A stretch of DNA of 23,372 nucleotides from Chiloscyllium plagiosum (lineage: Eukaryota), in contig NC_057752.1 in NCBI RefSeq assembly GCF_004010195.1, forward strand, positions 14,061,727 through 14,085,098. Direction: 5' to 3'. Positions 1,941 to 21,687 of this stretch are shown here, piece by piece. Positions within the stretch are counted from its first letter, which is position 1. Each line of letters begins with the position of its first letter. Position numbers and translations under genes: made by a program. Under the pieces are notes generated by a model. It made no database searches and had not been told where the DNA came from. It saw only the letters and a list, made by a program, of their open reading frames with translations.

Positions 1941-2066
1941 GAGACAGTGAGGGCTGCAGATGCTGGAGATCAGAGTCGAGAGTGTGTTGCTGGAAAAGCA
2001 CAGCAGGTCAGGCAGCACCCGAGGGGAGCAGGAAAATCGACATTTCGGACCGGAGCCCTTCATCTG
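1941..2066 (-). mobile_element. Solo Penelope-like pLTR (family A) with decayed hammerhead motif and 14-bp TSD
   Basis: Minus strand reads C(A)GATGA-A-GGGC-tccg-GTCC-GAAA-TGTC-gatttt; exact direct repeat GACTTATTTCTCAG at 1927-1940 and 2067-2080. Confidence 0.85.
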
Positions 2067-2123
2067 GACTTATTTCTCAGCCCAGTGGTAAAGCAAGAAA
2101 CTGGAACAATGTCTAATGCTGGT

Positions 2124-2263
2124 GTTCAAATACTGGCTATATACGGTACACCAGAGGTGTGAAACACTGGTGATGTGCTGTGTAGTGGGATGTACAAACA
2201 CTGTCAATGTACTGTTCACTCGAAATGTATAAACGCCGGTGATGTGTTATACACAAGAGATGT
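2124..2263 (+). repeat. Degenerate ~34-bp minisatellite, about 4 units
   Basis: aaa(c/t)(a/g)c(t/c)g anchors at 2128, 2162, 2196 and 2231 (spacing 34, 34, 35). Confidence 0.7.
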
Positions 2264-2911
2264 CCTCCTCCAGCTGGGGAGAGGTAAATTTGCCTTCTGT
2301 CCATCAGCAAAATTATTTGATTTGTTTTTCTATTTTGAGAGAGGCTGTGGTGTTGCCCCTAGATGTGAAGTCAATTTTTAAATGAACCACAACAAATTCT
2401 CTTTCAGATGAAGTGAGATGTATGATTTATTTGTGCAGCCAAACCTGAAGGATGATATACGCAATTGCACATACAAAGAGGAAAAAAAAGAAAGGAAATA
2501 GAATAATGTGAAAACACAGAGATAGATGTCAGAATCAAGAAGGTCCAGTGATGATTCTCTCCTGTAGGAGCTCAGAATAGACATTTCCTCTCCTTGGAGG
2601 GGAAATAGTTGGGCAAGTCGGTCCTGGAGAGATAGTTGCCCCTTCCTTGCCACCTCATCAATTAAACTCTGGGTAAAAAGGTTCCTGTGTGACCTTCTCG
2701 AGCCGTCACCAGTTAAAGCCCTTCAATTTCAGGCTGATGAGAAAAGGAGCTGTCCACTGAGTCATTGGGGTGGGAGAGGTATGCCTCCATTTGCCCCAAT
2801 CTGGGGTCAAGCAGAGGCAAGGAGGGTGCAAAAGGGTGGTCTCTGAAAGCCTCTGATACCTCGATTCCCATGGTCTGTGCCCCAGGACAGAAGGTCACAG
2901 TCACTGGGGAG

Positions 2912-3418
2912 TTGATGGCCTTCTGGTATTATTGCTGGCCTGCTAGTCCAGAGACCCAGGGAATATCTTGGAGACTGGGGTTCAAATCCTGCCACAGCAG
3001 ATGGTGGAAGTTGGATTCAATAAAAAATCTGGAATTAGGAATCCAATAATGACCATTGTCAATTGTTGGGAAACCCCATCTGGTTCACTACTGTCCTTTA
3101 GGGCTCATGATTCGGAGATGCCGGTGTTGGACTGGGGTGTACAAAGTTAAAAATCACGCAACACCAGGTTATAGTCCAACAGGTTTAATTGGAAGCACAC
3201 TAGCTTTCGGAGCGATGGAGTAAGTGTGAGGGATCAGGGTGATGGTGACAGAGTGAGTTCCTTCCTTTAGGGAGGGAAGCTGCCATCCTTACCTGGTTTG
3301 GCTGACAAGTGACTCCAGACCCACAACAATGTGGTCAACTCTTAACTGCCCTCTGGGATGGGCAATAAATGCTGACGCAGCCATGATGCCCTCATCCTGT
3401 GAATTAATTTGAAAAAAA
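2912..3418 (+). mobile_element. tRNA-type SINE (non-HE1 family), interrupted at 3104-3262
   Basis: ggttcaaatcc B box, aaaaatctggaatt, cccatctggttcact...tcctttaggg...tgactccagacccaca...gcaataaatgctg tail plus A-run; same family at 9800-10071, 11669-12092 and 19587-19858. Confidence 0.85.
3104..3214 (-). mobile_element. Penelope-like pLTR fragment (family B), truncated within hammerhead stem II
   Basis: Minus strand tcGCTCC-GAAA-GCTA-GTGtgcttccaattaaacctgttggactataacctggtgttg; insert 3104-3262 is flanked by TCCTTTAGGG at 3094-3103 and 3263-3272. Confidence 0.85.
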
Positions 3419-4065
3419 GGTATCTTCTTTGCACTGGGATCCCATGAGAAGGAGGAGGCCTTGACCCCAATAGACTTTAGGACCCAGTAGCTGCTGGCTT
3501 CTGATTCACCAGTAGCCCAGGTTACCAGTGTCAAGGCCTCTGATGTGGTGAGGCACTCGGCCACGCTCATATAGCAGCTGTTACCCGGTCACCAGCTAAT
3601 CCTGCAGTTTTCTGCGTTGCCACCTCATGCGTTGACCCCTACACTTAGTCCAAAAAGGGGGAGATTCTGCACTCGAATTCAGGGAGGCTCAGCTGGTCAA
3701 GCCAGGAGTTGCAGAATTCCTCTTACAGATGGCAAAGACACAGCGGTGGGAGGTGAGCTCATCAAGACTGCTCAGTCAATTACAAGGGTCCTTTCACAAT
3801 TGGGATTCGAGTGCCTGGACTTGAGGCCAGTTAGCTGTTATCGCAGAGTACTGCTTCCTGTTCTCTCTTTCAAAGGGGAGACTCAGACTTGAGGCAGGGT
3901 CATGGTCAGCCTGAAATGTAGCTGATGTTAACCAGCGTTTCAGCTTGGTCTGTCGAGTGAGCTTCAGAAATGGAGATTTAAAGGTTTTGAAAGGCCTGGG
4001 AAGTTTTGGCCATCTGAAAGGGCCAGTAAGGAGTCAGTTTCAGCTCATCAATTTCTATCGCTCTG

Positions 4066-4401
4066 AGTGGCTCAGCACTGTTGCCTCACAGTGCCAGGGA
4101 CCAAGGTTCGATTCCATCCTCGGGCAACTCAACTGTCTGCATGGAGTTTGCATGTTCTCCCTGTGTCTGTGTGGGTTTCCACTGCGTGCTCTGTTTCCTC
4201 CCACAGTCTAAAGATGTGCAGGTAAGGGTGTATTGGCCAGGCTAAATTGCCTCATAGTATGCAGGATGGGTGGATTAGCCATGGGAAATCCAGAGTTACA
4301 GGGATTGGGGAGGGGGTCTGTTTGGATAGGATGCTCTCTGGAGGCTTGGTGTGGATTCAATGAGTTGAATGGCCTGCTCCCACACTGTCAGAGTTCTATG
4401 A
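4066..4401 (+). mobile_element. HE1 SINE (older, diverged)
   Basis: cactgttgcctcacagtgccagggac, ggttcgattcc B box, aaagatgtgcagg, tail aatggcctgctcccacactgtcagagttctatga. Confidence 0.88.
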
Positions 4402-4404
4402 TAT

Positions 4405-5424
4405 ATAGCAAAGTTACAGCACAGAAAGAAGCCATTCAGCCCATCATATCCATGTGGCTAATTCTGATAGCCTTCCTCTCATCCCACTTTCTAGCCCCGG
4501 CTCTGTAACCCCACAGGCCCTTTTGAAACGGGTTGAGGGTTTCTGTCTCCACTATCAATTTGGACAGTGACCCAGACACCTACCACCCCCTGAGGTAAAG
4601 GACTTTCCTCATGTCCCTCTAACCCTTCCACCAATCACCTTCAATCTGTAGCCCTTGCTAAGTGACCTCTCTGTGAGGGGAAACAGACCTACCTTGCCCA
4701 CTCTGTCCAAGCCCCTCATTATGTTATACACCTCCATTCAATCACCCCCCACCCCCGCCCCACCTCCCCCACCCCAGCCTGTTCTGGGGAAAATACCCCT
4801 CGCCTCTCCAATCGCCTCTCACTCCTGCAATTTTCAAACCTTAGCAATATTCTTGGAAGTGTCCTCTGTAATCTCTCTAGAACAATGATGTCCTTCTTGT
4901 AATGTGGTGACCAGGACTGTGCACACAACCCCAGCTGTGGCCTTGCCAGTGCCTTATGTAACTCCAGCATTACATCCCTGCTCTTGCATTCAATACATCT
5001 CCCATACGTCTTTATTACTACCTTATCCCCCTGTCCTGCCACATTCAGGGACCTGTGGATAGGCTCTCCAAGGCCTCTCACATCCTCCACCCCTCTCAGT
5101 AGCCCTCCATTCATTGTTTATTGATTTGCTCAGTTTGCCCTCATCGCCTCCCCATTTCTTCAGATTGAATTCCATTTGCCACTTTTCCACCCACTTATCG
5201 TCCTGCAGTTAACAGCATCCTCTCCACTATGCGGCTAATTTTTGTGTTGTTTGCAAACTTCCTCATCACACTTCCCACATTTATGCCCAAGTCATTGATT
5301 CATACCACAAACAACAGGGAGCCAACACTGGTTCCCCGTGGAACCCCACTGGAAATCACTTTTTGTTCACAGAAACCTCCATTGATCATTACTCTTTTTC
5401 TCCCTGTCACTGAGCCAATTTTAG
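4405..5424 (-). mobile_element. Old CR1-clade LINE 3' portion
   Basis: ORF 4719-5114 (-) gives RDVMLELHKALARPQLGLCAQSWSPHYKKDIIVLERLQR (CR1 ORF2 C-terminal region); remnants of GVPxG and KFA(D)(D)TK upstream; 3' tail gggctgaatggcttctttctgtgct. Confidence 0.85.
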
Positions 5425-5454
5425 GTCCGGCTCACCATCTTTAAACTGCGTCCC

Positions 5455-5735
5455 ATGTTCCAAACACAGGCGAGGTCCTGTACGCTACAGATTGCTAGCA
5501 CTGGTGATACACCATATACCAGGGGTCCCCAATCACTCACGAAGCACAGTAAACCAGAGATCCCAAACCGCTGACGAGGTCCTGTACATAGAGATTGCTA
5601 GCATTGGTGATATGCTGTATACCTGGGGTCCCCAATCACTCATGAAGCACAGTAGACCAGAGATCCCAAACCACTGACGAGGTCCTGTACATAGAGATGT
5701 AGAAACACTGAAATGGCCAGACAGTGGTGATGTTT
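5455..5735 (+). repeat. Tandem repeat, ~103-bp unit (about 2.3 copies) built from three ~34-bp subunits
   Basis: cgaggtcctgtac recurs at 5471, 5575 and 5678; near-identical copies of ...ggggtccccaatcactca.gaagcacagta.accagagatcccaaacc. Confidence 0.88.
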
Positions 5736-5913
5736 TTGCTCTTGGCTTCTATTACCAACAAGCATGAGGCAAGTCAATTCAAGTTGTATCAATGGGTGTT
5801 GCATGTGGGTTTGTCCATTTTGAAATTGGTGGATTTTTTTTTGTTCATTCCAAACACACTGAACCATCTTTTAGTGTTTGCAGTTGCAATGCTGCCCCGG
5901 ATTTGCATATTTG

Positions 5914-6252
5914 GGGCAGCATGGGGGCTCAGTGGTTAGCACTGCTGCCTCACAGTGCCACGGACCCTGGTTTGATTCCACCCTCGGGTGACTGTCTGTG
6001 TGGAGTTTGCACATTCTCCCTGTGTCTGTGTGGGTTTCCTCCAGGTACTCCAGTTTCCTCCCATGGTCCAAAGATGTGCAGGTTAGGGTGAATTGGCCAT
6101 GCTAAATTGCCCCGTAGTGTTAGGCGCATTAGTCAGGGGTCAATATAGGGTAGGGGAATGGGTCGGGTGGGTTATTCTTCGGAGGGCCAGTGTGGACTTG
6201 TTGGGCCGAAGGGCTTCTTTCCATACTGTAGGAAATCTAATCTATTCTAATC
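5914..6252 (+). mobile_element. HE1 SINE, near full length
   Basis: gggcagcatgggggctcagtggttagcactgctgcctcacag, B box ggtttgattcc, complete central domain, tail ccatactgtaggaaatctaatctattctaatc. Confidence 0.95.
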
Positions 6253-6342
6253 AGTGTTGAGTTACAGACTGTACTGATATCTCAGCGTGCATCGACTCTG
6301 TCAATCACTGGTGAGTGTTGTATTTCAGTGATCAAACCTTCA

Positions 6343-6517
6343 CTTCTGGTCATTAGCTTCTGACTATCTGGGGGAAGCTGCTGTGCACGAATTGGCCATC
6401 GTGTTCCTTACATTACAACTTTTGAGTTCATCATAGAAACAAGGCTTTTCATTGGCTGTGAAGCGATTTGCAACACTTTGAGAATGTAAATGATGCGATA
6501 TGAATGCAAGTCTTTTG
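6343..6517 (+). mobile_element. 3' part of a SacSINE1/AmnSINE1-like DeuSINE
   Basis: gctgtgcacgaattggc...ttccttacattacaac...ttcattggctgtgaagcg.tttg...tatgaatgcaagtctttt resembles the AmnSINE1-type tail as I recall it; not database-checked. Confidence 0.65.
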
Positions 6518-6617
6518 TCCTTTGATGGCATGACATCATTCTCCATAAAAAAACTCAGTTCATCCTAACCCTAGCCACCTTCCTGGGCAATAATCACCTG
6601 TATTCTCCTGTGCATAA

Positions 6618-6788
6618 GGGCAGCACGGTGGCTCAATGGTTAGCACTGCTGCCTCACAGCTCCAGGGATCCAAGTTTGATTCCATCCTCGGGTGATTGTC
6701 TGCATGGAATTTGCATATTCTCCCTGTATCTTTGTGAGTTTCCTCCCACAGTTCAAACATGTACAGGTAAGGATTGGCCGTGCTAAAT
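6618..6788 (+). mobile_element. HE1 SINE, 3'-truncated
   Basis: gggcagcacggtggctcaatggttagcactgctgcctcacag...ggattggccgtgctaaat; no tail. Confidence 0.9.
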
Positions 6789-6821
6789 GATATGCTTTAT
6801 GCTTCCGGGCAATGGAACAAT

Positions 6822-7114
6822 GGGAGTGACGTGGTGGCTCAGTGATTAGCACTGCTGCTTCATAGCACCAGGGACCCAGGTTCGATTCCAGCCTCAGGCA
6901 ACTGTCTGTGTGGAGTTTGCACGTTCTCCCCGTGTCTGTGTGGGTTTCCTCCGGGTGCTCCGGTTTCCTCCCACAGTCCAAAGATGTGCAGGTCAGGGGA
7001 ATTGCCCATGGTAAATTGCCCGTAGCGTTAGGTGCGTTAGTCAGAGAGAAATGGGTCTGGGTGGGTTACTCTTCGGAGGGTCTGTTTCCACACTGTAGGG
7101 AATCTAATTTAATC
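6822..7114 (+). mobile_element. HE1 SINE
   Basis: gtggctcagtgattagc A box, ggttcgattcc B box, central domain, tail ctgtttccacactgtagggaatctaatttaatct. Confidence 0.95.
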
Positions 7115-7133
7115 TCACTGTGGCTTAATTGCT

Positions 7134-7279
7134 GAGTCAAGATTAGAGTGGTGTTGGAAAAGCCCCTGATGAAGGGCTTTTGCCCAAAACATCGATTTTC
7201 CTGCTCCTCGGATGCTGTCTGACCTGCTGTGCGTTTCCAGCACCACTCTGATCTCCAGCATCTGCAGGCCTCACCTCTG
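7134..7279 (+). mobile_element. Penelope-like pLTR (family A) with 5' inverted arm and CpG-decayed hammerhead
   Basis: CTGATGA(7166-7172)-A-GGGC-tttt-GCCC-aAAA-CaTC; 7141-7163 (gattagagtggtgttggaaaagc) is the reverse complement of 7231-7253 (gcgtttccagcaccactctgatc) with 3 mismatches. Confidence 0.85.
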
Positions 7280-7684
7280 CCTGCCTCGCTGACACAAACA
7301 TCCTTCCTCAGGATGACTTTAGCTTTCGATAGGACCTGAAACGACTGGCAGAGGTTCAGGCCCCAGTCGCACTAGCCATCATGTTCACTATCTCTCTTTG
7401 GCAGTCCTATGGATTGCAGGGAATGTCTGCTACGCCTTGCCAGAGGATAAGGAGAAGGAAAGACAGGGATGGGGGGGGAATGTCAGAAAAAGGTAAAGGA
7501 GGTGGCAAAGGGAAAGTAAATAGCTCAGCAAGCAGCAGCATTTCTTTAAACAAACTCACGGTCAGTCTGTTGCTAATGAAAGCTCTCAGAGTTTCTTCAG
7601 CTTTCTTCTTACTCCCACATCCTTCCTTAAGGCCAGTGCTGAGGTCAAACCCACTCTTCTTTGAGCAGGTGACCAGGGTTGCGC

Positions 7685-8002
7685 AGAATCCCTACAGTGT
7701 GGAAGCAGGCCACTTGGCCCATCAAGTGACCACTGATCCTCTGAAGAGCATCTCACCCAACTCTGCACTTTCCATGACTAACCGCCGCCCCCCCCTCCTA
7801 GCCTGCACATCCCTGGTCACCATGAGCAATTTAGCATGGCCAATCCACCCTAACCTGCACATCTTTGGACCGTGTGAGGAAACTAGAGAAAACCCACACA
7901 GACACGGGGAGAACTTACTAACTCCACACAGACAGTCGCCTGAGGGTGGGATCGAACCCAGGTCCCTGACACTGTGAGGCAGCAGTGCTAAAGCCACTAA
8001 GC
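7685..8002 (-). mobile_element. HE1 SINE subfamily carrying an internal CCTGCACATC direct repeat
   Basis: Reverse-complement HE1 head (ggttcgatccc B box) and tail (ccacactgtagggattct); cctgcacatc at 7802 and 7854. Confidence 0.92.
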
Positions 8003-8124
8003 AAGTGCTTGTGTTCTAGCCTATTATAGTCCTTCTTAGATACCCTCATTGCTGCCCCCTACTGTGTTGTTTTGGGTACTCCATTGGCTTCTTTCAGATC
8101 AATGAAGGTGCTCTGTGAAGCAAT

Positions 8125-8303
8125 AAGGGTTAGCTCAATTGGCTGAACAGTTGGTTGGTGATGCCATTTCTGTGGGTTCAGTTCCCATCCCTAACTGAAG
8201 TTACCATGATGATTCCTCCTTAGCCCCCTTGTCCGAGGTGTGGTGACCACCAATTGTCTCTTTTTCTCGAATGAGAAAGTCACCCCATGATGACTTTACC
8301 TTT
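8125..8303 (+). mobile_element. Decayed tRNA-type SINE, distinct family
   Basis: tagctcaattgg A-box-like, gggttcagttccc B-box-like, tail atgatgactttaccttt. Confidence 0.55.
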
Positions 8304-9669
8304 TCCACATGACTATCATGCTCCCCTCCGCCATTGTGAAAAGGTTCCCATCTCTACATTCTCTCAAAGCCGGCAGCTTTAGGACCAGATTTTGAATGTG
8401 GCTCGGTGATGTGATATGTAGACCTATACACAGGAGGGTCAAATCATTGAGATTCGGGCTGATATAAAGGGTCGCACAGTTCTCAAAGCACTGCCGAGCA
8501 ATAAGCATGGGCCTGTGTGTTACCACTTCCCAGCTGTGCTCTGGGGTGAGTCTGGTTTACTTATGGGAAAACCATCCCGCAATGTACCCATGCAGTTGCC
8601 TGATGTTTCATAACAGGGGTTGTAAATAATTGGCTGCAAATCTCCAGGCCACATCTATCACTGTCAGTTTTACTCTTAAAAATAGACTGGGAGTCTTGAA
8701 AGCTTACTCAGCTGTCGCAGGCATGACAGATAGAGGATACTCGACTAAGGGGGCAGAACTGGACTGAAGGACTGGATCTTAATTTAGAAGGGAATTTGTA
8801 AACGCTTAGATTGAGCTGGAGGGTGTCCCCTTGTACTGAAAGTAAAAGATGCACAGATGAGGATTTGCCCTTTTATTCTTAAAAGGCATTCTAATTATAT
8901 GGGACGACAGCTATCATTAAACACAGAGAATAATGCTTTCTATTTAATGAAAACCACTATTTCTACAGCACAGGACAGGAAGCGACCCATAAGTACCTTA
9001 CATTTGTACAACTCCAATGCTACGATAGAATCCTCATCCTAGCCCCACTCCTCCACCAACCATATTGTAGAATTAACAATATATTTCCCAGTTACCAATT
9101 AATGTCTTATACATATCAGGCTTCAAACAAGATATATAAGCCAGGTTTATTAATAACCTCTATTAAGGGCTTATTATCAAAACAAAACTTATTCAATAAA
9201 GATGCAATAATTGATTAACATACTCGGTCAGCAAATGCAACTATAAATACTTATCCCTCTAAAGAACTCAAGCATCCACACTTTAGGGGAAAAATTGGAT
9301 TTCAGCCTGCAGAGATTCACTTTGGAAATAATAAAAACACTTAATGGCCATCAGCATTAGTCTTGAAGGCAAAAAAGATCAAGTATATAATGTTCCAAAG
9401 TCTGTTGCTCCAATGTTGTGACACGGTTGTCACTGGAGTCTTGGTTGACACAGCTTGCTCAGGAAATATAATATTGAGCTGTCAGGTGGTAGTGTGGGGA
9501 AAAATAGAGAGAAAAAAAAAATAAACAGGAGCATCTGCCCTTTGAGAAGAGCACTGCTTGTCACTGGCCACTTGGGTGTTTTCTTTCTTCCTAGTGGTGG
9601 ATTATAAATAAAGATTTGCATGCTTGTTGTTTTTCACTGTGTCCGAAACCTGCAAGAAAACAAAAATAA

Positions 9670-9799
9670 CCAGGAGTGTCAGAGGTTCTGTTCACTCTGA
9701 GATCTGGCTCTGAGGGAGCTGGATCAGTGTCAGGGACTCTCCACATGTAAGTAAAGGGGGACTTGGTGACAAGATACTGGCCTCTACGGTGTTATTTCA
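9670..9799 (+). repeat. Dispersed repeat resembling an LTR 3' end (copy 1)
   Basis: ggagtgtcag.ggttctgtt...catgtaagtaaaggg.ga.ttggtga...tactggcctct..gg.gtta.ttCA is shared with 10985-11113; AGTAAA polyA-like signal and CA terminus. Confidence 0.6.
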
Positions 9800-10071
9800 A
9801 CTGCTTTCATGGCCATTTCAACTGATTAGATTAGATTAGATTACTTACAGTGTGGAAACAGGCCCTTCGGCCCAACAAGTCCACACCGACCCGCCGATGT
9901 GCCACCGTGCCGCCCACAATGAACTGCTTTCATTAAACTTTTAATTCCAGATTTTTATTGAATTCAATACTCATTGTCTCTCTGGTGGGATTCAAACACC
10001 GATTCCCCAGAACATTACCTGGCTCTCTGGATTATTCACCCAGTAACAACACCAAGAGGCCATTGTCTCCC
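9800..10071 (-). mobile_element. 5' half of the non-HE1 tRNA-type SINE, interrupted by a mini-HE1
   Basis: taattccagatttttattgaattcaa...gggattcaaac...ccccagaacattacctgg is the reverse complement of the 2912-3050 head. Confidence 0.75.
9824..9916 (-). mobile_element. Mini-HE1: 5' ~18 nt fused directly to the 3' tail
   Basis: Minus strand gggcggcacggtggcaca|tcggcgggtcggtgtggacttgttgggccgaagggcctgtttccacactgtaagtaatctaatctaatctaatc. Confidence 0.85.
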
Positions 10072-10291
10072 CTAAGTAAATGCTGTAAATGGAAAAAGAG
10101 GGATTGTCCTTAAGGACATTTGGGCTAGGGTAATGATGAGGCAAGACTTCGTGAATCTAACTCTTGGATCCTGCAGTAACCCTGGTCCATTTTCCTGGGG
10201 TGGGTTATATTTGGCATGTAAAGCGTTGTTCTGTTACTGATATGACCATTTTTTCAGTGTCAGTCTAGAAAGTAGACCAAAGGACTGTACG

Positions 10292-10416
10292 ACATAGGAG
10301 CAGAAATTAGGCCATTCAGCCCATTGAGTCTGCTCCACCATTCAATCATGGCTGATAAGTTTCTCAACCCCATTCTTCCACCTTCTCCCCATAACCTTTG
10401 ATCCCCTTAACAATCT
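10292..10416 (-). mobile_element. CR1 LINE 3' tail fragment
   Basis: cataggagcagaaattaggccattcagcccattgagtctgctccaccattcaatcatggctgat...ttctccccataacctttgat; related to 20707-20868. Confidence 0.8.
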
Positions 10417-10581
10417 AGAAAGTGAATAACAGCAAGCTATTCCTTCGTAAGGAACATTCATAATAGGCCTCTGGATAACTGACAGTGAGGATGTCAAGAT
10501 AATTGCAATGCTCATCCTTCAACTGGTTGGGACTAGTTCATTACAAACTGGAAACTGAACTTTCTGGGGAAACATGGACCC

Positions 10582-10785
10582 AGAGTCACAGAGGTGCTGG
10601 GGTGCAGAAGGAAGCCATTAGGGCTGTCATGCCTGCACTGGTTCATTAAATGAGCATCATTGCCAAGTGCCAATTTCCTGCATTTCCCTATTATCTTTGC
10701 ATGCTAGTTCCATCCAAATCACCATCCAATGCCTCAGATGAACCTGCCTCCATCACACTTCCCAACAGTGCATTCCATCAGTATT
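10582..10785 (-). mobile_element. Decayed CR1 LINE 3' tail fragment
   Basis: agagtcacagagg...cagaaggaagccatt...ttccatccaaatcaccatccaatgcc...cctgcctccatcacacttcccaacagtgcattcca. Confidence 0.6.
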
Positions 10786-11113: not shown

Positions 11114-11143
11114 CTTACCAGTCATGTGATTTTCTAGGTGGAG

Positions 11144-11260
11144 TCCACCTGACGAAGGAGCAGCGCTCCGAAAGCTTGTGATTTCCAATAAACTTGTTGG
11201 ACTATAACCTGGTGTTGTGTGACTTTTGACCTTGTCGGCCCCAGTCCAACACCAGCACCT
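11144..11260 (+). mobile_element. Penelope-like pLTR (family B)
   Basis: Hammerhead followed by aataaacttgttggactataacctggtgttgtgtgacttttgac...cccagtccaacaccagcacctc, homologous to the copies at 3104, 12996, 15255 and 21484. Confidence 0.88.
11146..11180 (+). ncRNA. Minimal type I hammerhead ribozyme motif, intact core
   Basis: CAC-CTGACGA-A-GGAGC-agc-GCTCC-GAAA-GCTT-GTG: stem I CAC/GTG, 5-bp stem II, palindromic AGCT stem III, predicted cleavage after CUU (11177). Confidence 0.8.
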
Positions 11261-11327
11261 CGCCCTCTTGGAGATTTGGATGAGAAAAAAGCTCCAATAT
11301 TCCCAATGACCTTTTCAGCGATCTCTT

Positions 11328-11938: not shown

Positions 11939-11972
11939 ATCCTGAAGAAGGGCGCATGCCCGAAACGTCGAT
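11939..11972 (+). ncRNA. Minimal type I hammerhead ribozyme motif, intact core with GUC site
   Basis: ATC-CTGAAGA-A-GGGC-gcat-GCCC-GAAA-CGTC-GAT: stem I ATC/GAT, 4-bp stem II, palindromic ACGT stem III, predicted cleavage after GUC (11969). Confidence 0.8.
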
Positions 11973-12031
11973 TCTCCTGCTCCTTGGATGCTGCCTGACC
12001 TGCTACGCTTTTCCAGCAACACATTTTCAAC
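11941..12031 (+). mobile_element. Penelope-like pLTR fragment (family A)
   Basis: Hammerhead followed by gattctcctgctccttggatgctgcctgacctgct.cgcttttccagcaacaca, homologous to the copies at 1941, 7134, 18392 and 18631. Confidence 0.88.
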
Positions 12032-12789: not shown

Positions 12790-12993
12790 CAGATTCGATG
12801 GTGCTTAAAGCAATCTTCGGCATTAACCCTTTCACAACCATTACCGTGTACAGCACGAATGAATTGAAGACCCTGCCTCCGTTACATTCAAATGATCCTC
12901 TGAGAGAAAATATTTCACCTCGTCTTTGTCTTAAAAGGGAGTCCTTCTTACCTTAAACTAGGACTCCGAGTGTTAATCTCCATGCACAAGAGG
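12790..12993 (-). mobile_element. Old CR1 LINE, 3' segment (continues at 15345)
   Basis: ctctgagagaaaatatttcacctcgtctttgtcttaaaaggg...ccttaaacta...cacaagagg, collinear with CR1 3' ends such as 17625-17730. Confidence 0.6.
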
Positions 12994-12995
12994 CA

Positions 12996-13078
12996 GAAGT
13001 CACATGACACCAGGTTTTAGTCGAACAGATTTATTTGAAATCACACAAGCTTTCAGAGCGCTGCCCCTTCGTCAGGGG
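12996..13078 (-). mobile_element. Inverted 5' pLTR arm of a Penelope-like element, with hammerhead core at 13044-13078
   Basis: Minus strand ccc-CTGACGA-A-GGGGC-agc-GCTCT-GAAA-GCTT-GTGtgatttcaaataaa; stem II holds with two G-U wobbles and stem I has one mismatch. Confidence 0.85.
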
Positions 13079-13079
13079 C

Positions 13080-13270
13080 AACCGTGATCTTGGGTTCATG
13101 TCGCCCTACAGGTGACCCCACCACACGTTTCCGTATCTGTAAAATCTTCCTTACTGTCTTGTTCTGACAACATCCCCTTGATAAATTGTTGTGATCTCTC
13201 TAACTTAATTAGTTTGTACAGGTTTGAATTACTTATTACACTCTCTCTCACACACACACACAAATCTATG
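13080..13270 (+). mobile_element. Penelope-like element: ORF C-terminus and start of 3' UTR with (CT)n(CA)n microsatellite
   Basis: 13080-13115 translates NRDLGFMSPYR*, matching the (GL)NRDxGF motif I recall at the end of vertebrate PLE GIY-YIG domains. Confidence 0.7.
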
Positions 13271-13273
13271 CAG

Positions 13274-14862
13274 ATAGAGTCATAGAGGTGTACAGCACGG
13301 AAACAGACCCTTCGGTCCAACCCGTCCATGCTGACCCAGATATCCCAACCCTTTCAAGCTTCACAACACCTTTCCGATAGGAAGGAGACCAGAATTGCAT
13401 GCAATATTCTAAAAGTGGCCTAACCAACATCCTGTACAGCCGCAACATGTACTCAATTCTCTGACCAATAAAGGAAAACATACCAAACGCCTTCTTCACT
13501 ATCCTATCTACCTGCGACTCCACTTTCAAGGAGCTATGAACCTGCACTCCAAGGTCTCTTTGTTCAGCAACACTCTCTAGGGCCTTACCATTAAGTGTAT
13601 AAGTCCTGCTAAGATTTGCTTTCCCAAAATGCAGCACCTCGCATTTATCTAAATTAAACTCCATCTGCCACTNNNNNNNNNNNNNNNNNNNNNNNNNNNN
13701 NNNNNNNNNNNNCAATTTTGGTGTCATCTGCAAACTTACTAACTGTACCTCTTATGCTCGCATCCAAATCATTTATGTAAATGACAAAAAGTCATGGACC
13801 CAGCACCGATCCTTGTGGCACTCCACTGGTCACAGGCCTCCAGTCTGAAAAACAACCCTCCACCACCACCCTCTGTCTTCTACCTTTGAGCCAGTTCTGT
13901 ATCCACATGGCTAGTTCTCCCTGTATTCCATGAGATCTAACCTTGCTCATCAGTATTCCATGGGAAACCTTGTCGAACGCCTTACTGAAGTCCATATAGA
14001 TCACGTCCACCACTCGCCCTCATCAATCCTCTTTGGTACATCTTCAAAAAACTCAATCAAGTTTGTGAGACATGATTTCCCATACACAAAGCCATGTTGA
14101 CTATCCCGAATCAGTCCTTGCCTTTCCAAATACACGTAAATCCTGTCCCTCAGGTTTCCCTCCAACAACTTACCCACCATCGAGGTCAGGCTCACCGGTC
14201 AATACTTCCCTGGCTTGTCCTTACCACCCTCTTAAACAGTGGCACCACGTTAGCCAACCTCCAGTCTTCCGGCACCTCACCTGTGACTATCAATGATACA
14301 AATATCTCAGCAAGGGGCCCAGCAATCACTTCCCATAGAGTTCTAGGGTACACCTGATCAGGTCCTGGGGATTTATCCACCTTTACATCCAGCACTTCCT
14401 CCTCTGTAACATGGACATTTTTCAAGATCTCACCATCTATTTCCCTACAGTCTATATCTTCCATGTCTTCTCCACAGTAAACACTAAGGCAAAATACTTG
14501 TTTAGTATCTCATCCATCTCCTGCGGCTCCACACAAAGGCCACCTTGCTGATCTTTGAGGGGCCCTATTCTCTCCCTAGTTATCCTTTTGTCCTTAATGT
14601 ATTTGTAAAAACCCTTTGGATTCTCCTTAATTCTATTTGCTAAAGTTATCTCATGCCCCCGTTTTGCCCTCCTGATTTCCCTCTTAAGTATACTCCTACT
14701 TCCTTTATACTCTTCTAAGGATTCACTCGATCTATCCTGTCTATACCTGACATATGCTTCCTTCTTTTTCTTAACCAAACCCTCAATTTCTTTAGTCATC
14801 CAGCATTCCCTATGCCTACCAGTCTTTCCTTTCACCCTGACAGGAATATACTATCTTTGGAC
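13274..14862 (-). mobile_element. Young 5'-truncated HER1/CR1 LINE: ORF2 pseudogene with RT core and 3' tail
   Basis: Successive frameshifted ORFs: KENPKGFYKYIK..., KSPGPDQVYPR...VPEDWRLANVVPLFK, SLTSMVGKLLE...SQHGF...SCLTNL, YMDFSKAFDKVSH...GVPQGSVLGP, KFADDTK, WQMEFNLDKCEVLHFG...LVRPLLEYCMQFWSP; tail ccgtgctgtacacctctatgactctat. Confidence 0.96.
13673..13712. other. Assembly gap (40 N)
   Basis: Run of N inside the LINE RT region. Confidence 0.99.
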
Positions 14863-14868
14863 TCTCTT

Positions 14869-15343
14869 TTGTTTATTTGCAGATAAATTCAATTTTGTTT
14901 GAAAAACACATAATTTGTAGTTAGAGTCTGTCAATGTGGCATCTTTTGAATTTCAGCTTTCGGAATAAAACCAGCCTGACTCCAGGTTGAAACTCTGAGC
15001 CAGATTCTGAACAAAGCCTCACACCTACAATTCAGTGTCTGACCTGAGATGTCACTTTTGTCTATTCCCATCGCTCTGCCTGATTGTCATGACAGCGCAG
15101 CACTGACATTGACTTTATAAACACTTTACCCGCCGTCTAACACTCTTGGTGACTTACAGAGATGTATTATCTGACGCTCCACTCACACCAGTTGTATCAT
15201 CTTTTGATCTCTCTGCCAATAAACTCTGTGTCTGTGTGCCCTGCTCTCTCATTGCACCTAATGAAGGGCCTGCACTCCGAAAGCTTGTGTGATTTCAAAT
15301 AAACCTGTCCACCCCAGTCCAACACTGGCACCTCCACATCATG
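14869..15343 (+). mobile_element. Penelope-like element 3' UTR and 3' pLTR (decayed hammerhead at 15255-15289)
   Basis: CAC-CTaATGA-A-gggcc-tgc-actcc-GAAA-GCTT-GTG; 15283-15303 gcttgtgtgatttcaaataaa is the exact reverse complement of 13030-13050; ends ccccagtccaacactggcacctccacatcatg. Confidence 0.75.
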
Positions 15344-15344
15344 T

Positions 15345-16055
15345 ACCCCAAAAGAGGGGGACATGATTCATTCAGCACCTACCCTGCCCAGTCTCTCAAG
15401 TCATTATATATTTCAATAAGATCACCTCTCATTCTTCTAACCTCCAATGGAGAGAGGCCTAACCTATTCAACCTTGCTTCATGAGATAAGCCTTTCATCC
15501 CAGGAATGAGTTGAGTGAAACCTCTCTGAACTGATTCTAAAGGAATTATAGTTTTTTTTCAAATAAGGAGATTAAAAAAAACTTCAGATGCAGTCTCACC
15601 CTGCTTCACTATTCTATTCCTCCGCTATTAAATGTCAGCATTCGCTTTGCCTTCCTCGTCACGCTGTTTTGTATTTCATACACCAGGACACCCAGATCCC
15701 TCGGAACCTCAGAATCCTGCAACCTTCCTCATTTTTTATTTTAAAAAAGTGCTGCTTTTCTATTCTTCCTGCCAAAATGGACACATTTATGCTGACTCAC
15801 ATTATACTCCATCGGCCAAATCTTTGCTCCCTCAGGTAACCTGTCCTCTCTCGCTTTGTAGACTCCCTGCCCCTTCTTGACAATTTGCTTTCCTCCCAAT
15901 CTGGGTGTCGTCAGCAAATTTAGTGGCCACACATTCGCTCCTGTCACCAAATTCATTGAGATAGACTGTAAATAATTGAGGACCTTGCGGCACTCCATTT
16001 GCGAGAGCCCGCCGACTCAAGAAGACCAATTTATCCCTACCTTCTGCTTCCTGCT
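15345..16055 (-). mobile_element. Old CR1-clade LINE RT region
   Basis: GVPQGPQLFTVYLNE...KFADDT (ORF 15832-16029) and AKIWPMEYNV..KC..VHFGRKN (ORF 15741-15998). Confidence 0.85.
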
Positions 16056-16214
16056 AGCACAACATAGAAAATAGGAGAAGAAGTGTTTCCTTCAAGCTTT
16101 GCACCTGCTCAGCTATTCCATATCAGGTCAGAGGCTAGGAATCCTGCTGCAGGCAACTCACCTTGCCAAAGCTAAAATGCTGGGGGACCTTATTGGAAGA
16201 GAATCCTGATGTAT

Positions 16215-16325
16215 TTTTGACAACCCCTATTAAACCTCTCCTTAACCTTCGTTGCTCTAAGGAGATTAATCCCAGCTTCACCAATATTTCCACATAACTG
16301 AACTACCTGGTATTATCCTGCGAAG
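16215..16325 (-). mobile_element. Decayed CR1 fragment split by the LTR; resumes at about 16976-17032
   Basis: tattaaacctctccttaaccttcgttgctctaaggagattaatcccagcttc.cca... then ...ccaggaccttgacac.gctcct...gaggtgccc, collinear with 4730-4915. Confidence 0.55.
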
Positions 16326-16975
16326 TACGGAAAATAAAGAACATGGAAGTATGGGAAGGGTTAAAGCACGAAGACCACTGGGAATCTGTGTTCTGTGGAA
16401 GGCAGGATGGGATAACCACAGTGGAACATTCTTACACCAATTAGCAGAGTAAGGTTAAAGCTGAAAGGTCACTATGGCGAGATGAGATAACATAAGTAAT
16501 AAAGGAAGTTTCTCTGTTAAGTGTTATTATGACAGGATTGGGACAATAAATATCTAATTAATAATTAGTAAAGTCAGCTTGAGACAGGAGACTATTGTAA
16601 CAGATGGAATAGCTAAATATCTATCATGATAGGTTAGTCTGGAATTGAAGATCACTGTAGCACAGTTAGCAATAAATATCTAACCGTGACATTAGAATAA
16701 CATTAAGTAGAATGTACAACTAAAGAGATAATGGGAACTAACCTCACTGGTTTATTGTGTAGCTAGAGTGAGGTACTTTGATTAATATAGTTGAACATGC
16801 TAATAACCTAACAGAAACATTTAAAAAAAGATATAAAAATCCATGGACCCTGAGGTGCGGGGGCATTCGAGAATCTGCTTTCTCAGTGTCACGGTTTTTT
16901 GTTTGCAAATAAAGGACCTACTTCTTGAAGAACTCTCTGTGTCGCCTGGCGGTTCTCTATATTTTCTCCCCAACA
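16326..16975 (+). mobile_element. Probable solo LTR (ERV- or Gypsy-type), 650 bp
   Basis: GAAG direct repeat at 16322-16325 and 16976-16979; TATAAAA at 16832-16838, AATAAA at 16908-16913, CA 3' end, imperfect terminal inverted repeat (gaaaataaagaac / gttctctatattttc); 5' end is TA rather than TG. Confidence 0.65.
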
Positions 16976-17416
16976 GAAGCTTCCTATCTCCCCAATCCAG
17001 GACCTTGACACTGCTCCTGTCATGAGGTGCCCGGTATTTTCGCTGAGGCCTAGTCAGAGATTTGTAAAGATTTTAGCGTGAACCTGTTTCTCTAGTCAAA
17101 GCCCTCGTTGACACCACTGAGTACCCCTGACATTTTCTTGACAGTGCCAACAGCTTGCTCCGTCACCCGTAAACAGTTGTGAATCTTCACCCCTCGGCTC
17201 CCTCTGTTCTTGAACCCCCATCAGAATCGTACAATTTCGACTACACTATGTTTCAAAGTACAGTCCTCTTAACATGGGTTACTTCACAACTGGATAAATG
17301 TCTGCCTCTTTCATCAGTTCAACCTCTGTGTTCCTGCAATCTTCTGCTGAAACCTGCACACAATGACAAGCTTCAAATCATTTACGAACTTTGCACTCCC
17401 TCTACCCAGGTCTCAT

Positions 17417-17818
17417 TTAGAGTCGTACAGCACAGAAACACGCCCTTCGGCCCAACGTGTCCATGCCAACCAGGTTTCCTAAACCGAACGGGTCCCATTT
17501 GCCAGCATCTGGCCCATATCCCTCCAAACCCTTCCTATTCATATACCCATCCAGATGCCTTTTAAATGCTGTAATTGTACCAGCCTCCACCACTTCCTCT
17601 GGCAGCTCATTCCATACACACACCACCCTCTGTGTGAAAACATGGCCCCCTAGATCCCTTTTATATCTTTCCCCTCTCACCCTAAACCTATGCCCTCTAG
17701 TTCTAGACTCTCCTCCCTTCGGAAAAAGACCTTGTCTATTTATCCTGTCCATGCCCCTCATGATTTTATAAACCTCTATAAGGTCACCCCTCAGCCTCTG
17801 ACACTCCAGGAAAAGAAA
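17417..17818 (-). mobile_element. HER1/CR1 LINE 3' end
   Basis: ORF MRGMDRINRQGLFP...TRGHRFRVRGER...FTQRVVCVWNELPEEVVEAGTITAFKRHLD; tail gggccgaagggcgtgtttctgtgctgtacgactcta. Confidence 0.93.
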
Positions 17819-18391
17819 ACAATGGTCCTAATAAAGATCCCTGCGTATCCACTGTATACATATTTCCATATTCATTTATAAAAATCATTTATTTACTTCT
17901 CTGCCTCTTGTTCCTTTGCCAGGTTGCCAATCCCTTTAATGCGACATGTTTCCATTTTCCAAATAACTCTGTTCTGTGGTACCATCACCACCTTCACGTC
18001 TACTACACCATCTTTTTTTCAACTCTCCCTACCACAACATAAAATAACTCAATCAGGTTGGTCAGGCCTAAATTTGCCATTAACACTGGCTGTGCATTAT
18101 GAACCCATGCTTTTCCAAGTGATAAATATTTGGTCTTTGACAATGATCTCTGCTGGTTTTCCCACAGACATAAAACTGACTGACCTGTTGTCTTCGGGGT
18201 AATTCCTCTCCCATTTATTGAACAGAGATGTAACATTGATAGTGTTCTAGTCCTTAGGCATTTGACTGATATATGAGGAGGATTGGAAGATTGAGGTCTG
18301 AATTTCCTCTATCTTAATCCTTGCTTCCCTCTGAAGGGAAAGATACATCCCATCTGGATGTGGTAGTGCTTGTTAACATTAAGTGATGCCA

Positions 18392-18519
18392 GTGTCAAAA
18401 AGTGTGGCGCTGGAAAAGCACAGGAGACCTTGGATGCTGTCTGGCCTGCTGTGTTGTTCCAGTGCCACACTTTTCTGCTCTGATCCCCAGTACCTGCAGT
18501 CCTCGCTTTCTCCTAGTTT
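18392..18519 (+). mobile_element. Hairpin mini-PLE (family A tail plus inverted arm) with 10-bp TSD, no hammerhead
   Basis: Arms at 18398-18423 and 18449-18474; AGTGATGCCA at 18382-18391 and 18520-18529. Confidence 0.85.
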
Positions 18520-18630
18520 AGTGATGCCAACCTCACCAGCACTTATTTTTGTACCTGTGCTTATCCTATCCAAGACTTTTATTTGAGTTCTACAGCATGG
18601 AGGCGGGCCCTTTGGTCCAAACTGGTCCGT

Positions 18631-18972
18631 GAGGAGAAAGTGAGGACTGCAGATGCTAGAGATCAGAGTCGAGAGAGTGGTGCTGGAAAAGCACAGCAGG
18701 TCAGGCAGCATCTGAGGAGCAGGAGAATCGACATTTCGGGCACAAGCCCTTCATCAGGCTGAGAGATAGTTGGGAGAGGGGTGGGGCTAGAGGGAAGGGA
18801 GCAGAGAATGTAACAAGTTGGTGAAGGTGGGGGAGAAGGTGAGAGGTCAGAGAGGAGGATGGAGCAGATAGATTGGGAGAAAGATGGACAGGTCAAGAGG
18901 GCGGTGCCGAGCTGGAGGCTTAGGACTAAGATAAGGTGGGAGGAGGGCAATTGAGGAAACTGGCGAAATCCT
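18631..18972 (-). mobile_element. Penelope-like element (family A) 3' region with hammerhead at 18727-18758
   Basis: Minus strand: pyrimidine-rich UTR, then CTGATGA-A-GGGC-ttgt-GCCC-GAAA-TGTC-gattctcctgctcctcagatgctgcctgacctgctgtgcttttccagcaccac. Confidence 0.88.
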
Positions 18973-18982
18973 GCCTGGGAAT

Positions 18983-19190
18983 GTGGTGGAGGGCAGGTTC
19001 AATTCAGATATTGGATGGTTATTGGTTTCGAAATGGGGTACAGGGATATGGGAGAATGGCAGCAGATTGACTCTCGGTAATGAGGCTCGTTTAATGGGGT
19101 GTAGGTACAATGAGCTGAACAGCCAATTAGAACACAAGAACAGTACAGGGCCCTTCGGCCCACCATGTCTGTGCTGACCATGATGCCAGT
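18983..19190. mobile_element. Two short CR1 3' fragments, tail to tail (+ 18983-19100; - 19129-19190)
   Basis: gtggtggagggcagg...cagggatatgggagaatggcag; agaacacaagaacagtacagggcccttcggcccaccatgtctgtgctgaccatgatgcca. Confidence 0.6.
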
Positions 19191-19586
19191 ACATCGTGGG
19201 AGATCCCAGCCCTACCTCAGTAGGCCACACTCTGGGTGGGGGGAGGTTAGAGTCCCTCTGCAGAGATTTGACTTCAGAATCCAGGCCAACACTCCGAAAC
19301 TACACTATCGGCCACGAAGCCGCACACAGGAGGAGGCTATTCAGGCTGGTTATCCTTGTGCCAGCTCTCAGCTCATCCCACCTTCGTCCCCCGTAGCTGT
19401 GCGGATCTTTTCCCTCCCGATGGGCCTACTCCCGCTACAAGCTTCTGGCTCAGAGCGAGCCGGGCCGATTCCCATCTGGAGAAAGGGAAGCGAATGGACC
19501 GCGAGGAAGATTCTGCCTTCAGGCTGTTACGGCAGTGTCATTGTACCTGGTGGCACAAAGATGGTGGCTCGTTCCAGCTACAAACA

Positions 19587-19858
19587 GGGAGGTAATGGCC
19601 GAGTGGACCCAGGTTCGAACCTCGCTACGGCACCCAGTGGTATCTGAAATTCAAAAATAAATCTGAAATAAAATTGACTGTGAATCCGTTGTCCGAAAAT
19701 CCCATCTGGTTCACTCATGTCCTTTAGCCCTGACCTGGTCTGGGCCTACATGTGACTCCAGACCCACAGCCATGTGTCTCTGCCCTCTGGGCAATTAGGG
19801 ACGGCGCAATAAATGCTGACCGAGCCAGCGACACCCTCAACCAATGTAAAAAGAAAAC
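19587..19858 (+). mobile_element. Non-HE1 tRNA-type SINE (internally deleted)
   Basis: ggttcgaacc B box, cccatctggttcactcatgtcctttag, tgtgactccagacccacagc, gcaataaatgctgaccgagccagcgacaccc plus A-rich end. Confidence 0.85.
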
Positions 19859-20706
19859 AAGAATGTCTCTCAGTGGGGACAAAGGTAAGTTTCGGATAAT
19901 ATACATAACGTGTAGAGTCAGTGACTTGGGAAGGGGATGTCAAGTAAAGAGTTCATACTCAAATCTGTGCACAATCAACTATGTAAGGGATCATTTGACA
20001 GAGTGCAATGCTACTGCACAGAACCTCATGTTTAAAAGATTCTGGAAGGTAGTGTTTATTCCTCAGCTTCTCCGAACTGAAGATTACCTCTTCAGTCGCT
20101 CTGTTTTCACAATCACTCCGCCCCTGGGAGTTTCCATCAACCCTTCTCCTCTGCTCTGCCGTAACCTTCGTTTCTGACTTCTATCACAAAGTCCCAGGTG
20201 AACAACTACAGAACAGTAAGCAATTTCACATCCAGAAATTAGAGAAAAATAAAGGAAACAGGCATACAGATGGCTCAGTAGGAAACCACATTGACGCCTG
20301 CCTGACTAATCCAGGCAAGGCTGCCCCTTCCTGCAATACCAGCGGTGGCCATGGCTCCTGATGGCGCTGCTGGGGTTGAATCAGCAGGAGGTGGGATCCA
20401 AAGACCCAGGAAATGTTAATCACTTGCAGCCAATGAAGTTCAATCCGTTGTGTGGCAGGAGAAACCTGTTTGGGAGGAACGAGCAAATTCTGGGCCTGCA
20501 TTCTCCATTGCTGGGGTGTTTTCCTCCTCTTCTGTTGTTACCGAATTGATAGTAAAAGCTCCATTGTGGTTGTATCTTGCAACAAACTGCGTGTTTGTAA
20601 GCGAACACAATGGGCTCGGGCCTATTTTATTTCCAGATCTTAGGGACATAGGAACCAGAGGAAGCCACTTACTTTGTGGCTCAACTGCATCTTGCCTTGT
20701 AAGACC

Positions 20707-20868
20707 AGAAGAAATAGGAACATGAGTAGGCCATTCGGCCCCTCAAGCCAGCTCCACCATTCAATAGGATCACGGTGAATCCCACATTCCTCACGTCCAC
20801 TTTCCTGCCCTTTCCCCATAACCCTTGATAACCAATTGATCAAGAATCAGTCTATCTCAACCTTGAAT
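20707..20868 (-). mobile_element. CR1 LINE 3' tail fragment
   Basis: gagtaggccattcggcccctcaagccagctccaccattcaatagg...ttccccataacccttgat...tctatctcaaccttgaat. Confidence 0.8.
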
Positions 20869-21130
20869 TCTACCCTTCCTCCATGCTTCCAAGACCCTTA
20901 ACACCTGACAGCAACAGTTGCAAGTTCCAAACAATCTTCAGGTTCAACAATCCTCAGGTTCAAGTTCCAGCTCCCCATTCCTGACTCTGGGATAAAATGA
21001 AACCACCCCTTATTAAGCCTAGCTCAGAATTTCTGTACCCTCGCCCCTCTTCCACACCTCCCACTTTCAGGAGCCTTTGACCAGAGGGAAGTTGCTTCCC
21101 TTCACAAACCACGTTGCATCCTGTCAAGCA

Positions 21131-21249
21131 GGCGTTTGTGGCGCAGTGGTAGTGTCCCTGGCTCTGAGCCAGGAGTTCGAGGCTCAGGCCTCACCTGCTC
21201 TCCAGCCGTGTGCTAAGACATCACTGAATAAGTTCGTTCAAGAACATCT
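21131..21249 (+). mobile_element. Short tRNA-derived SINE-like element
   Basis: tggcgcagtgg A box, tRNA-like gtagtgtccctggctctgagccagga, degenerate B box. Confidence 0.55.
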
Positions 21250-21329
21250 CTCCAGTCGTTTCAAAGCTGCTCAATTCGATGGTCCTCCCTTAAACGTCAA
21301 CGCTTGCAAGGCAAATCTCTGCGAGCCGT

Positions 21330-21450
21330 CCTCATAATGTGGCCCTTTCACCTCAGTACTGGCGTAAGTCTGTGCTGTACCCATCAAAGGCCAATGCATC
21401 CCCCCTGAAAAGGCTGTGCCAAGAACTGGGCATAGTACACCACACAAGAC
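21330..21450 (-). mobile_element. Decayed CR1 ORF2 fragment
   Basis: Minus strand gtactatgcccagttcttggcacagccttttcagggggg.atgcattggccttt resembles (E)YCxQFWxP..RxDxxAL. Confidence 0.5.
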
Positions 21451-21465
21451 ATGACCAGAACAGTT

Positions 21466-21687
21466 CGTGGTGTCGATTGTAGTCGTGATTTGGAGACGCT
21501 GGTGTTGGACTGGGATGGACAAAGTTAAAAATCCCACAACATCAGGTTATAGTCCAACAGGTTTATTTGGAAGCACTAGCTTTCGGAGCTAGTGATCACC
21601 TGATGAAGGAGCGACGCTCCAAAAGCTAGTGTGCTTCCAATTAAACCTGTTGGACTATAACCTGGTGTTGTGGGATTTTTAACTTTG
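21466..21687. mobile_element. Inverted-repeat Penelope-like insertion (two family B pLTR arms) with 14-bp TSD
   Basis: Arms 21520-21589 and 21616-21687 are reverse complements; + arm hammerhead CAC-CTGATGA-A-GGAGC-gac-GCTCC-aAAA-GCTA-GTG (21597-21631); TGACCAGAACAGTT at 21452-21465 and 21686-21699. Confidence 0.9.

Follow-up and report, generated by a model that had tools for sequence, protein, structure and literature searches.

Minimal hammerhead ribozyme motifs in short insertions of Neptune-type Penelope-like elements in the genome of the shark Chiloscyllium plagiosum

Minimal hammerhead ribozymes have been described in the pseudo-long terminal repeats (pLTRs) of metazoan Penelope-like elements (PLEs) (Cervera and De la Pena 2014, PMC4209133). 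Two families of such motifs, here called A and B, recur in a stretch of 23,372 nucleotides of the Chiloscyllium plagiosum genome (contig NC_057752.1, positions 14,061,727 to 14,085,098), which is the window of this study. We consider it probable that the motifs reside in short insertions of Neptune-type PLEs, and that they are numerous because the element RNA, beginning a few bases upstream of the ribozyme, served as template without being cut. Element positions are counted from C3 of CUGANGA (position 0), with the cut predicted before +28 in family A and before +29 in family B.

The published motifs and those described here share the type I topology, the CUGANGA and GAAA boxes, one extra base before stem II, the G10.1-C11.1 pair, a palindrome at 15.2-16.2 in a loopless stem III and a short stem I; in both cases most copies are single and truncated, and opposite-strand pairs occur. 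The alignment of PMC4209133 includes both CG and GC palindromes (turtle, lamprey, fish). An earlier note on the window was right to equate its motifs with the published minimal hammerhead, and the extra base, the palindrome and the idea of a working dimer are not unexpected, since all are in the 2014 paper. The differences lie in stem II, which is short here (4-5 bp), in the host group, no cartilaginous fish being found in the available text of PMC4209133, and in number: at least 106,582 exact matches and roughly 300,000 motifs by extrapolation, against about 4,000 in coelacanth and about 9,000 in Xenopus counted there by another method.

The Poseidon element PAc of the green anole (Frangieh et al. 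2024, PMC11167929) resembles the present families in its two fixed 3′ ends with a tail between them, in a ribozyme near the junction of pLTR and frame, and, as far as insertions can indicate, in an uncut template and target strands that can both be primed. In PAc, a member of the Poseidon clade, the frame begins inside the ribozyme, whereas here a CX4CxxC linker is present and the family B frame begins 121 nt after C3. The endonuclease-bearing (EN+) PLEs of the Neptune and Nematis types (Craig et al. 2021, PMC8557442; Arkhipova et al. 2013, PMC3846280) have in common with families A and B a reverse transcriptase (RT) with DKG, a CX2-5CxxC linker, a C-terminal GIY-YIG endonuclease with two cysteines and histidines (CCHH), partial tandems, an inverted 5′ copy, target duplications of variable length and a tail of 30-40 bp that is frequently confined to one end. 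Both papers, in their available parts, describe such one-sided tails in words; here, short pieces and head-to-head pairs dominate, and the rule of one tail per pair is nearly strict (75 of 81). Non-LTR (long terminal repeat) retrozymes, present in the one chondrichthyan sampled (bioRxiv 10.64898/2026.07.22.740005), are likewise non-coding, pLTR-derived and equipped with a type I hammerhead. They are tandem repeats with the ribozyme in consecutive units, whereas the copies here are solo or head-to-head, with no motif-bearing tandem array in the window and same-strand neighbours at chance level.

In the literature available, in part, to this comparison, no study of hammerheads in shark PLEs was found, and neither a 5′ limit of insertions at the ribozyme (including in the text on PAc) nor the near-strict count of one tail per pair was found described; the supplements of the 2026 preprint, Repbase and Dfam may hold these families. 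New here are further members of a known motif class, their very large number and the pattern of their junctions. The role of the hammerhead in PLEs and the origin of head-to-head ends are posed as open questions in the parts of PMC8557442, PMC3846280 and PMC11167929 drawn on here, and for each family tens of thousands of insertion junctions are available in this genome.

Structure and abundance of the motifs

Frequencies were estimated from a sample of 133 stretches of 10 kb on the 43 largest contigs, set at round coordinates rather than drawn strictly at random. The sample comprises 1,273,353 non-N bases and holds 268 pieces of family A, related families included, and 87 of family B in any state. 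A descriptor of the core alone matched 248 times in the sample and 58 times in the reversed sequence, and stem II followed after one extra base in 114 matches and after none in 4. These 114 motifs with core and stem II, a few of them chance-like, correspond to about 90 per Mb, from which the genome total was extrapolated. The very large population foreseen from the window is borne out by exact matches throughout the genome (87,506 for A and 19,076 for B, against 0 for the reversed patterns). Chance look-alikes might be suspected of so short a core, which has its matches in reversed sequence, and the suspicion could draw on Rfam, which gave 14 matches in the window at E up to 10 and no hammerhead family among them; the real and reversed counts refute it, as does the retention of features on which the descriptor does not depend. 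Two of the Rfam matches, MIR860 and mir-263, fall on head-to-head hairpins below the gathering scores and were rejected.

Among 90 distinct motifs of the sample, U16.1 is kept in 84 and H17 in 89, and the first stem II pair is G-C in 57 and G-U in 27. Positions 15.2-16.2 are CG in 31 and GC in 17, or have the CpG-decay forms CA (21) and UG (13), 82 in total. Stem I pairs 1 and 2, outside the descriptor, are Watson-Crick in 65 and 74 of the 90, with types that differ by family (C-G, U-A or A-U at pair 1; U-A, A-U or C-G at pair 2). Stem I of family A is weak because its third position is U-U in the commonest form. Covariation had been proposed as a check, and compensatory changes do exist in these stem I pairs. 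The covariation score of 14 hand-picked copies was 0.438 against 0.186 in shuffles, a value that 0 of 500 shuffles reached, in a set that contains related sequences, which inflate such tests, and in which four family B rows are shifted by one column. The compensatory changes are mainly between families or subfamilies, and changes within a family are mostly decay of the CpG type. Judged by their sequence, the motifs are minimal type I hammerheads in pLTR-derived short insertions. Core, stem II and Watson-Crick palindrome are all kept in 51 of 130 family A and 16 of 46 family B copies that span the core, about 40% overall. Across the genome, tens of copies show recurrent deletions inside the ribozyme at short microhomologies, which join TCCT to GATTC or TGAA to GAAAC.

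A strict descriptor, consisting of the full core (CUGANGA ... GAAA) plus at least 4 stem II pairs, finds four sites in the window, with C3 at 11149+, 11942+, 13075- and 18757-. The motifs of the window are not due to chance, because 100 dinucleotide shuffles gave a mean of 0.11 strict sites and a maximum of 2. Their description as dense holds against shuffles but not against this genome, from which 2.3 strict sites would be expected (P = 0.21); for family pieces, 11 were seen and 6.5 expected from the sample (P = 0.07). A local enrichment or cluster was rejected, and the motif density is a genome-wide property rather than a local one.

The parent elements

That the motifs belong to the pLTRs of two PLE families was correctly proposed from the window, genome copies of both being linked to RT and GIY-YIG frames. 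At loci taken from elsewhere in this 3.56-Gb genome (labelled by L-numbers), GIY-YIG frames lie upstream of copies of both motifs; the motif is linked to coding frames in L035, L044, L045 and L145 (B) and in L042, L057, L135 and L141 (A), and lies inside the element pLTR in L115, L140, L045 and L057. The longer copies encode an RT with DKG, PKIHK or PKVHK, GRPIVS and YIDD, a CX4CxxC linker (PCHGGRCKTC in B and PCHRRNCKTC in A; absent from the Poseidon-like L043) and a CCHH endonuclease, arranged as a single RT-zinc linker-GIY-YIG frame per family with the motif in the repeat on both sides. The frames of the two families align with 25-34% identity. A CX2-5CxxC linker between RT and endonuclease defines the Neptune/Nematis type in the available text of PMC8557442, and by this definition, rather than by a tree, families A and B are EN+ PLEs of the Neptune (or Nematis) type.

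The features of such elements are present: partial tandem pLTRs, an inverted 5′ copy, an optional tail and a target duplication. L115 begins with an inverted pLTR, followed by a direct pLTR that carries the ribozyme, the tail, an ATG at +121, the frame and, without a tail, the last pLTR; the family B start codon stands where the tail ends. In L140, a partial tandem of family A, two same-strand motifs flank a frame and lie 3,135 nt apart. Among eight close motif pairs that were fetched, L115 has a frame between same-strand motifs, and the others examined are separate short insertions or gaps. Pfam matched the element frames with RVT_1 (E 1e-5) and GIY-YIG (E 3e-4), both below the curated cut-offs, and a sequence search of PDB gave one uninformative match (E 0.46). 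The Pfam GIY-YIG model, too insensitive for the purpose, found 1 match in the genome, and element-derived queries found 53,812 and 88,656 first-look candidates. Among the best 120 of 1,049 protein relatives of family B, carpet-shark records are 84-88% identical and other sharks 65-80%, followed by turtles, ticks and sea urchins at 36-45%.

Other long open frames from the genome search proved to be mostly N gaps or internal repeats; in L039:2949-5583 and L040:5326-6003, internal pieces of the family A frame form head-to-tail arrays that give spurious long frames. In L077 (minus strand, at its start) and L117 (minus strand), the family A tail is followed by shared downstream sequence, likely the junction of pLTR and frame, and the tail end resembles a 3′ splice site in having a branch point, pyrimidines and AG; an intron in the 5′ untranslated region (UTR) would be consistent with this. 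Two further hammerhead families were noticed. The third (L097:9541+, L097:8929-, L108:3992-, L043:8001-8774) has a stem II of 6-7 bp with U as the extra base and adjoins Poseidon-like RT and endonuclease pieces that have no zinc linker; the fourth (L081:7949+, L086:140-, L058:1542+) has a 5-bp stem II, U-A pairs in stem I, a cut site of the CGUU type and downstream sequence in common with family A.

Insertion ends and the origin of the short copies

In the sample, the 5′ junctions of 77 of the 268 family A copies and 35 of the 87 family B copies fall at -10..+1, flanked by unique DNA or an inverted partner, and those of 19 and 4 copies fall at -100..-11, a per-base difference of 30-fold in A and 66-fold in B. 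Genome-wide, where a junction was counted as four non-matching bases before an exact stretch, family A has 4,411 junctions at -4 (3,774 in other subfamilies), 10 at -18, 177 at +20, 203 at +32 and 450 at the cut site (+28). Family B has 57 at its cut site and 187 four bases further on (+33), and no cut-site peak was found in this family genome-wide. Ratios between these counts are rough because the patterns differ in length and in subfamily share. The 3′ ends are bimodal, at about +85..94 and +123..129 in A and at +83..91 and +120..125 in B, as counted by a filter that needed 25 nt of +30..+90 and thus passed over any copy that stopped at the cut site. Close head-to-head pairs account for 108 of the 268 A copies and 54 of the 87 B copies, and exactly one tail is present in 49 of 54 A pairs and 26 of 27 B pairs. 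The dominant product is a piece of 90-135 nt or a head-to-head pair of 200-260 nt.

These patterns would follow if the limit near -10..+1 were the 5′ end of the RNA, likely a transcription start within the pLTR, as known for Penelope and Chlamys-3 (PMC2377424, in part), and if the two 3′ end points (about +87, and about +123 to +125) were internal start sites of reverse transcription, as the results for PAc suggest (PMC11167929, in part). Reverse transcription beginning about 90 or 125 nt downstream, at the sites nearest the RNA end, and running off that end would give products of 90-135 nt, every one of which would contain the ribozyme. Two priming events, one per start site, on two nicked strands would yield a head-to-head pair with one tail, and a single event a solo copy. 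Because the copies span the predicted cut site with no clear peak there, the template would have been uncut or rejoined RNA, in line with the green anole, where insertion in vitro does not require the ribozyme and uses mainly unprocessed RNA as substrate (PMC11167929). The ribozyme itself would likely be under selection only in active tandem elements, cutting as a dimer or with the element's protein, and the dispersed copies would be decaying passengers, likely inert.

An RNA start at -4 is further suggested by two signs in family A. The A at -4 sits in TCATTCC, which we take to fit the initiator consensus. Among the first 20 and the first 30 listed -4 sites, nine solo copies with a target duplication could be read: three have one extra base, G in all three, as a copied cap would give, two share G-AT with the target, three share AT or ATT, and one is flush.

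Several observations weigh against this account. The extra G is a thin sign (3 of 9 solos, and 0 of 3 in the second set), and G precedes -4 in 44 of 100 listed sites but in 13 of 100 in other subfamilies (counted by eye). In five of the nine solos the join is an AT or ATT microhomology, as would also be expected from an endonuclease that prefers ATT. The control at -18 represents one subfamily and a longer exact match, which inflates the ratio to it by a small factor. In family B the junctions form two softer peaks (-10/-9 and -4/-3), and a clear initiator is lacking. Cut-site junctions in family A are about twice those at +20 or +32, and about 46 of 100 listed ones are GA microhomology joins (by eye); the excess may be largely microhomology, with some RNA cutting possible. 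Raw reads of one sequencing run showed no pile-up of molecule ends and no RNA start, 93% of its reads continuing into unrelated sequence on both strands. Among 32 loci with long frames, many with N gaps, no unbroken full-length frame was found. For head-to-head ends, antisense self-priming has been proposed as an alternative (PMC3846280, in part).

The 5′ pile-up might instead arise when RT, working on the 3′ pLTR of a long transcript, stops or is joined at the upstream edge of the ribozyme, by ATT microhomology with the nicked target, by an endonuclease cut at the ATT of -4..-2, or by falling off after unwinding the ribozyme. The ATT preference of the anole enzyme (5′-ATT-3′; PMC11167929, in part), the ATT of family A at -4..-2, the AT or ATT that five of the nine solos have in common with their targets and the missing RNA start in the sequencing run all speak for such a stop. 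We nevertheless judge it unlikely, since a joining preference alone does not suffice to make junctions upstream of -10 about ten times rarer per base than those downstream of +1, the ATT at +29 attracts far fewer junctions than that at -4, family B has the same limit where it has no ATT, and three solos carry the extra G. A more speculative idea, to which we give little credence, retains the RNA end before the ribozyme and makes the hammerhead there an RNA pairing device: two RNAs would kiss through the ACGU or AGCU palindrome and load on a protein dimer, each being copied from one start site on opposite target strands to give head-to-head insertions with one tail. If so, the genome would document this process hundreds of thousands of times over, and cleavage would be a secondary activity under the control of protein.

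An arrangement of the dispersed copies as dimers is not supported. Same-strand core-spanning neighbours within 4 kb were found for 34 of 130 family A copies (36 expected) and 6 of 46 family B copies (5 expected), and most partners are inverted, 81 of 130 and 33 of 46 copies having an inverted partner upstream. Since same-strand partners are no commoner than chance, the dispersed copies likely do not work as dimers. It is scarcely credible that they form a working population that cuts host transcripts by palindrome pairing with a neighbouring copy, even though about 40% of the core-spanning copies are intact, the sequences are present in RNA from both strands, and one intact motif per 11 kb or so means that long introns hold several. 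The inverted partners are predicted to bury the motif in a hairpin, stem I, of 2-4 bp, is often deprived of its 5′ strand by the junction, and G12 and the CpG positions decay freely; moreover, published minimal hammerheads show no activity as monomers and low activity as dimers (PMC4209133, in part), and the anole ribozyme cuts only with protein (PMC11167929, in part). Very unlikely, too, is a non-autonomous family resembling short interspersed elements (SINEs) or retrozymes, propagated from short masters and possibly through circles cut and ligated by the ribozyme. Animal retrozymes do derive from pLTRs (bioRxiv 10.64898/2026.07.22.740005, in part), non-autonomous PLE derivatives exist (PMC8557442, in part) and short copies far outnumber long ones here, but the junction and spacer sequences of the pairs vary from copy to copy, subfamily marks match the long coding copies, no tandem array in the window carries the motif, and a circle cut by the ribozyme would not set a boundary at -4. 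On the preferred account of run-off copying, the junctions suggest that the RNA begins slightly ahead of the ribozyme, by a few bases, that it is copied uncut and that the two start sites are used in pairs, which makes a role in transposition testable, and very high ribozyme counts in shark genomes would be a by-product of insertion rather than a regulatory layer.

Insertions and other repeats of the window

The insertions of the window and the state of their ribozymes are as follows.

1938..2068, minus strand: family A mini-insertion with tail, -2 to +126, C3 at 2066; ribozyme damaged (CAGAUGA, U4 changed; AUGU); target duplication of 14 bp, 1927-1940 and 2067-2080.
3105..3217, minus strand: family B piece with tail, +12 to +124, beginning inside stem II and corresponding to a half motif of the earlier note; target duplication of 10 bp, 3094-3103 and 3263-3272, with unrelated filler between.
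7134..7274, plus strand: family A head-to-head pair, inverted arm 7134-7163 (+65 to +94) and direct arm 7165-7274 (-1 to +117); C3 at 7166, AAAA for GAAA (G12 changed to A), ACAU with the palindrome lost.
11146..11261, plus strand: family B mini-insertion, -3 to about +114, C3 at 11149; intact, with core, 5-bp stem II, AGCU palindrome and CAC/GUG stem I, and cut predicted after CUU.
11940..12029, plus strand: tailless family A mini-insertion, -2 to +87, C3 at 11942; intact, with core, 4-bp stem II and ACGU palindrome, and cut predicted after GUC.
12997..13117, minus strand: family B copy 12997-13076 (-1 to +78), C3 at 13075, joined to 13079-13117, an inverted piece matching the last part of the family B coding region; core kept, stem II GGGGC/GCUCU, CCC instead of CAC upstream.
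15255..15343, plus strand: decayed copy of family B, internally deleted, C3 at 15258; CUAAUGA, stem II broken.
18392..18514, plus strand: ribozyme-less remnant of a family A head-to-head pair, direct arm +40 to +125; target duplication of 10 bp, 18382-18391 and 18520-18529.
18632..18970, minus strand: tailed family A copy that includes some 250 nt of 3′ UTR (-247 to +125), C3 at 18757; the core is preserved, and AUGU is a palindrome only through G-U pairs.
21483..21687, plus strand: family B head-to-head pair, tailed inverted arm to 21589 (the second half motif) and direct arm 21595-21687 (-5 to +87), C3 at 21600, AAAA (G12 changed to A); target duplication of 14 bp, 21452-21465 and 21686-21699; one long hairpin predicted, -120 kcal/mol.

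All ten sites of the earlier note are present where it placed them, but on a site-by-site reading of its eight motifs the core is kept in only four. Two are undamaged (11942+ in family A and 11149+ in family B), two keep the core with weakened stems (18757- and 13075-), and a core base is lost in four (2066-, 7166+, 15258+ and 21600+). The motif given for family A, GAAACGTC, is found at one of the four family A sites and not at the other three. The remnant at 18392-18514 and the 3′ UTR joined to the 18757 copy had been overlooked. Target duplications of 10-14 bp accompany four of the insertions, and none was found at six other intervals tried. Another repeat appears to be interrupted by the family B piece at 3105-3217.

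A CTGACGA inside a 103-bp tandem repeat (5460-5698, 2.3 copies) lacks a stem II, so that it does not qualify as a hammerhead. A Pfam scan of 31 of the 60 open frames of the window gave no match. Fragments at 64-608, 13266-14850 and 17417-17827 translate to protein like that of long interspersed elements, with no Pfam match, and are presumably of CR1 type. SINE copies with a tRNA-like head, which we take to be of the shark HE1 type, lie at 583-860, 1320-1572, 4070-4400, 5915-6243, 6620-7110 and 7793-7991. A tandem array at 22243-23372, with 21.3 units of 53 bp (87% matches), matches a segment of an abundant SINE-like repeat at 7793-7868, which recurs inverted at 733-810 and 4198-4265.

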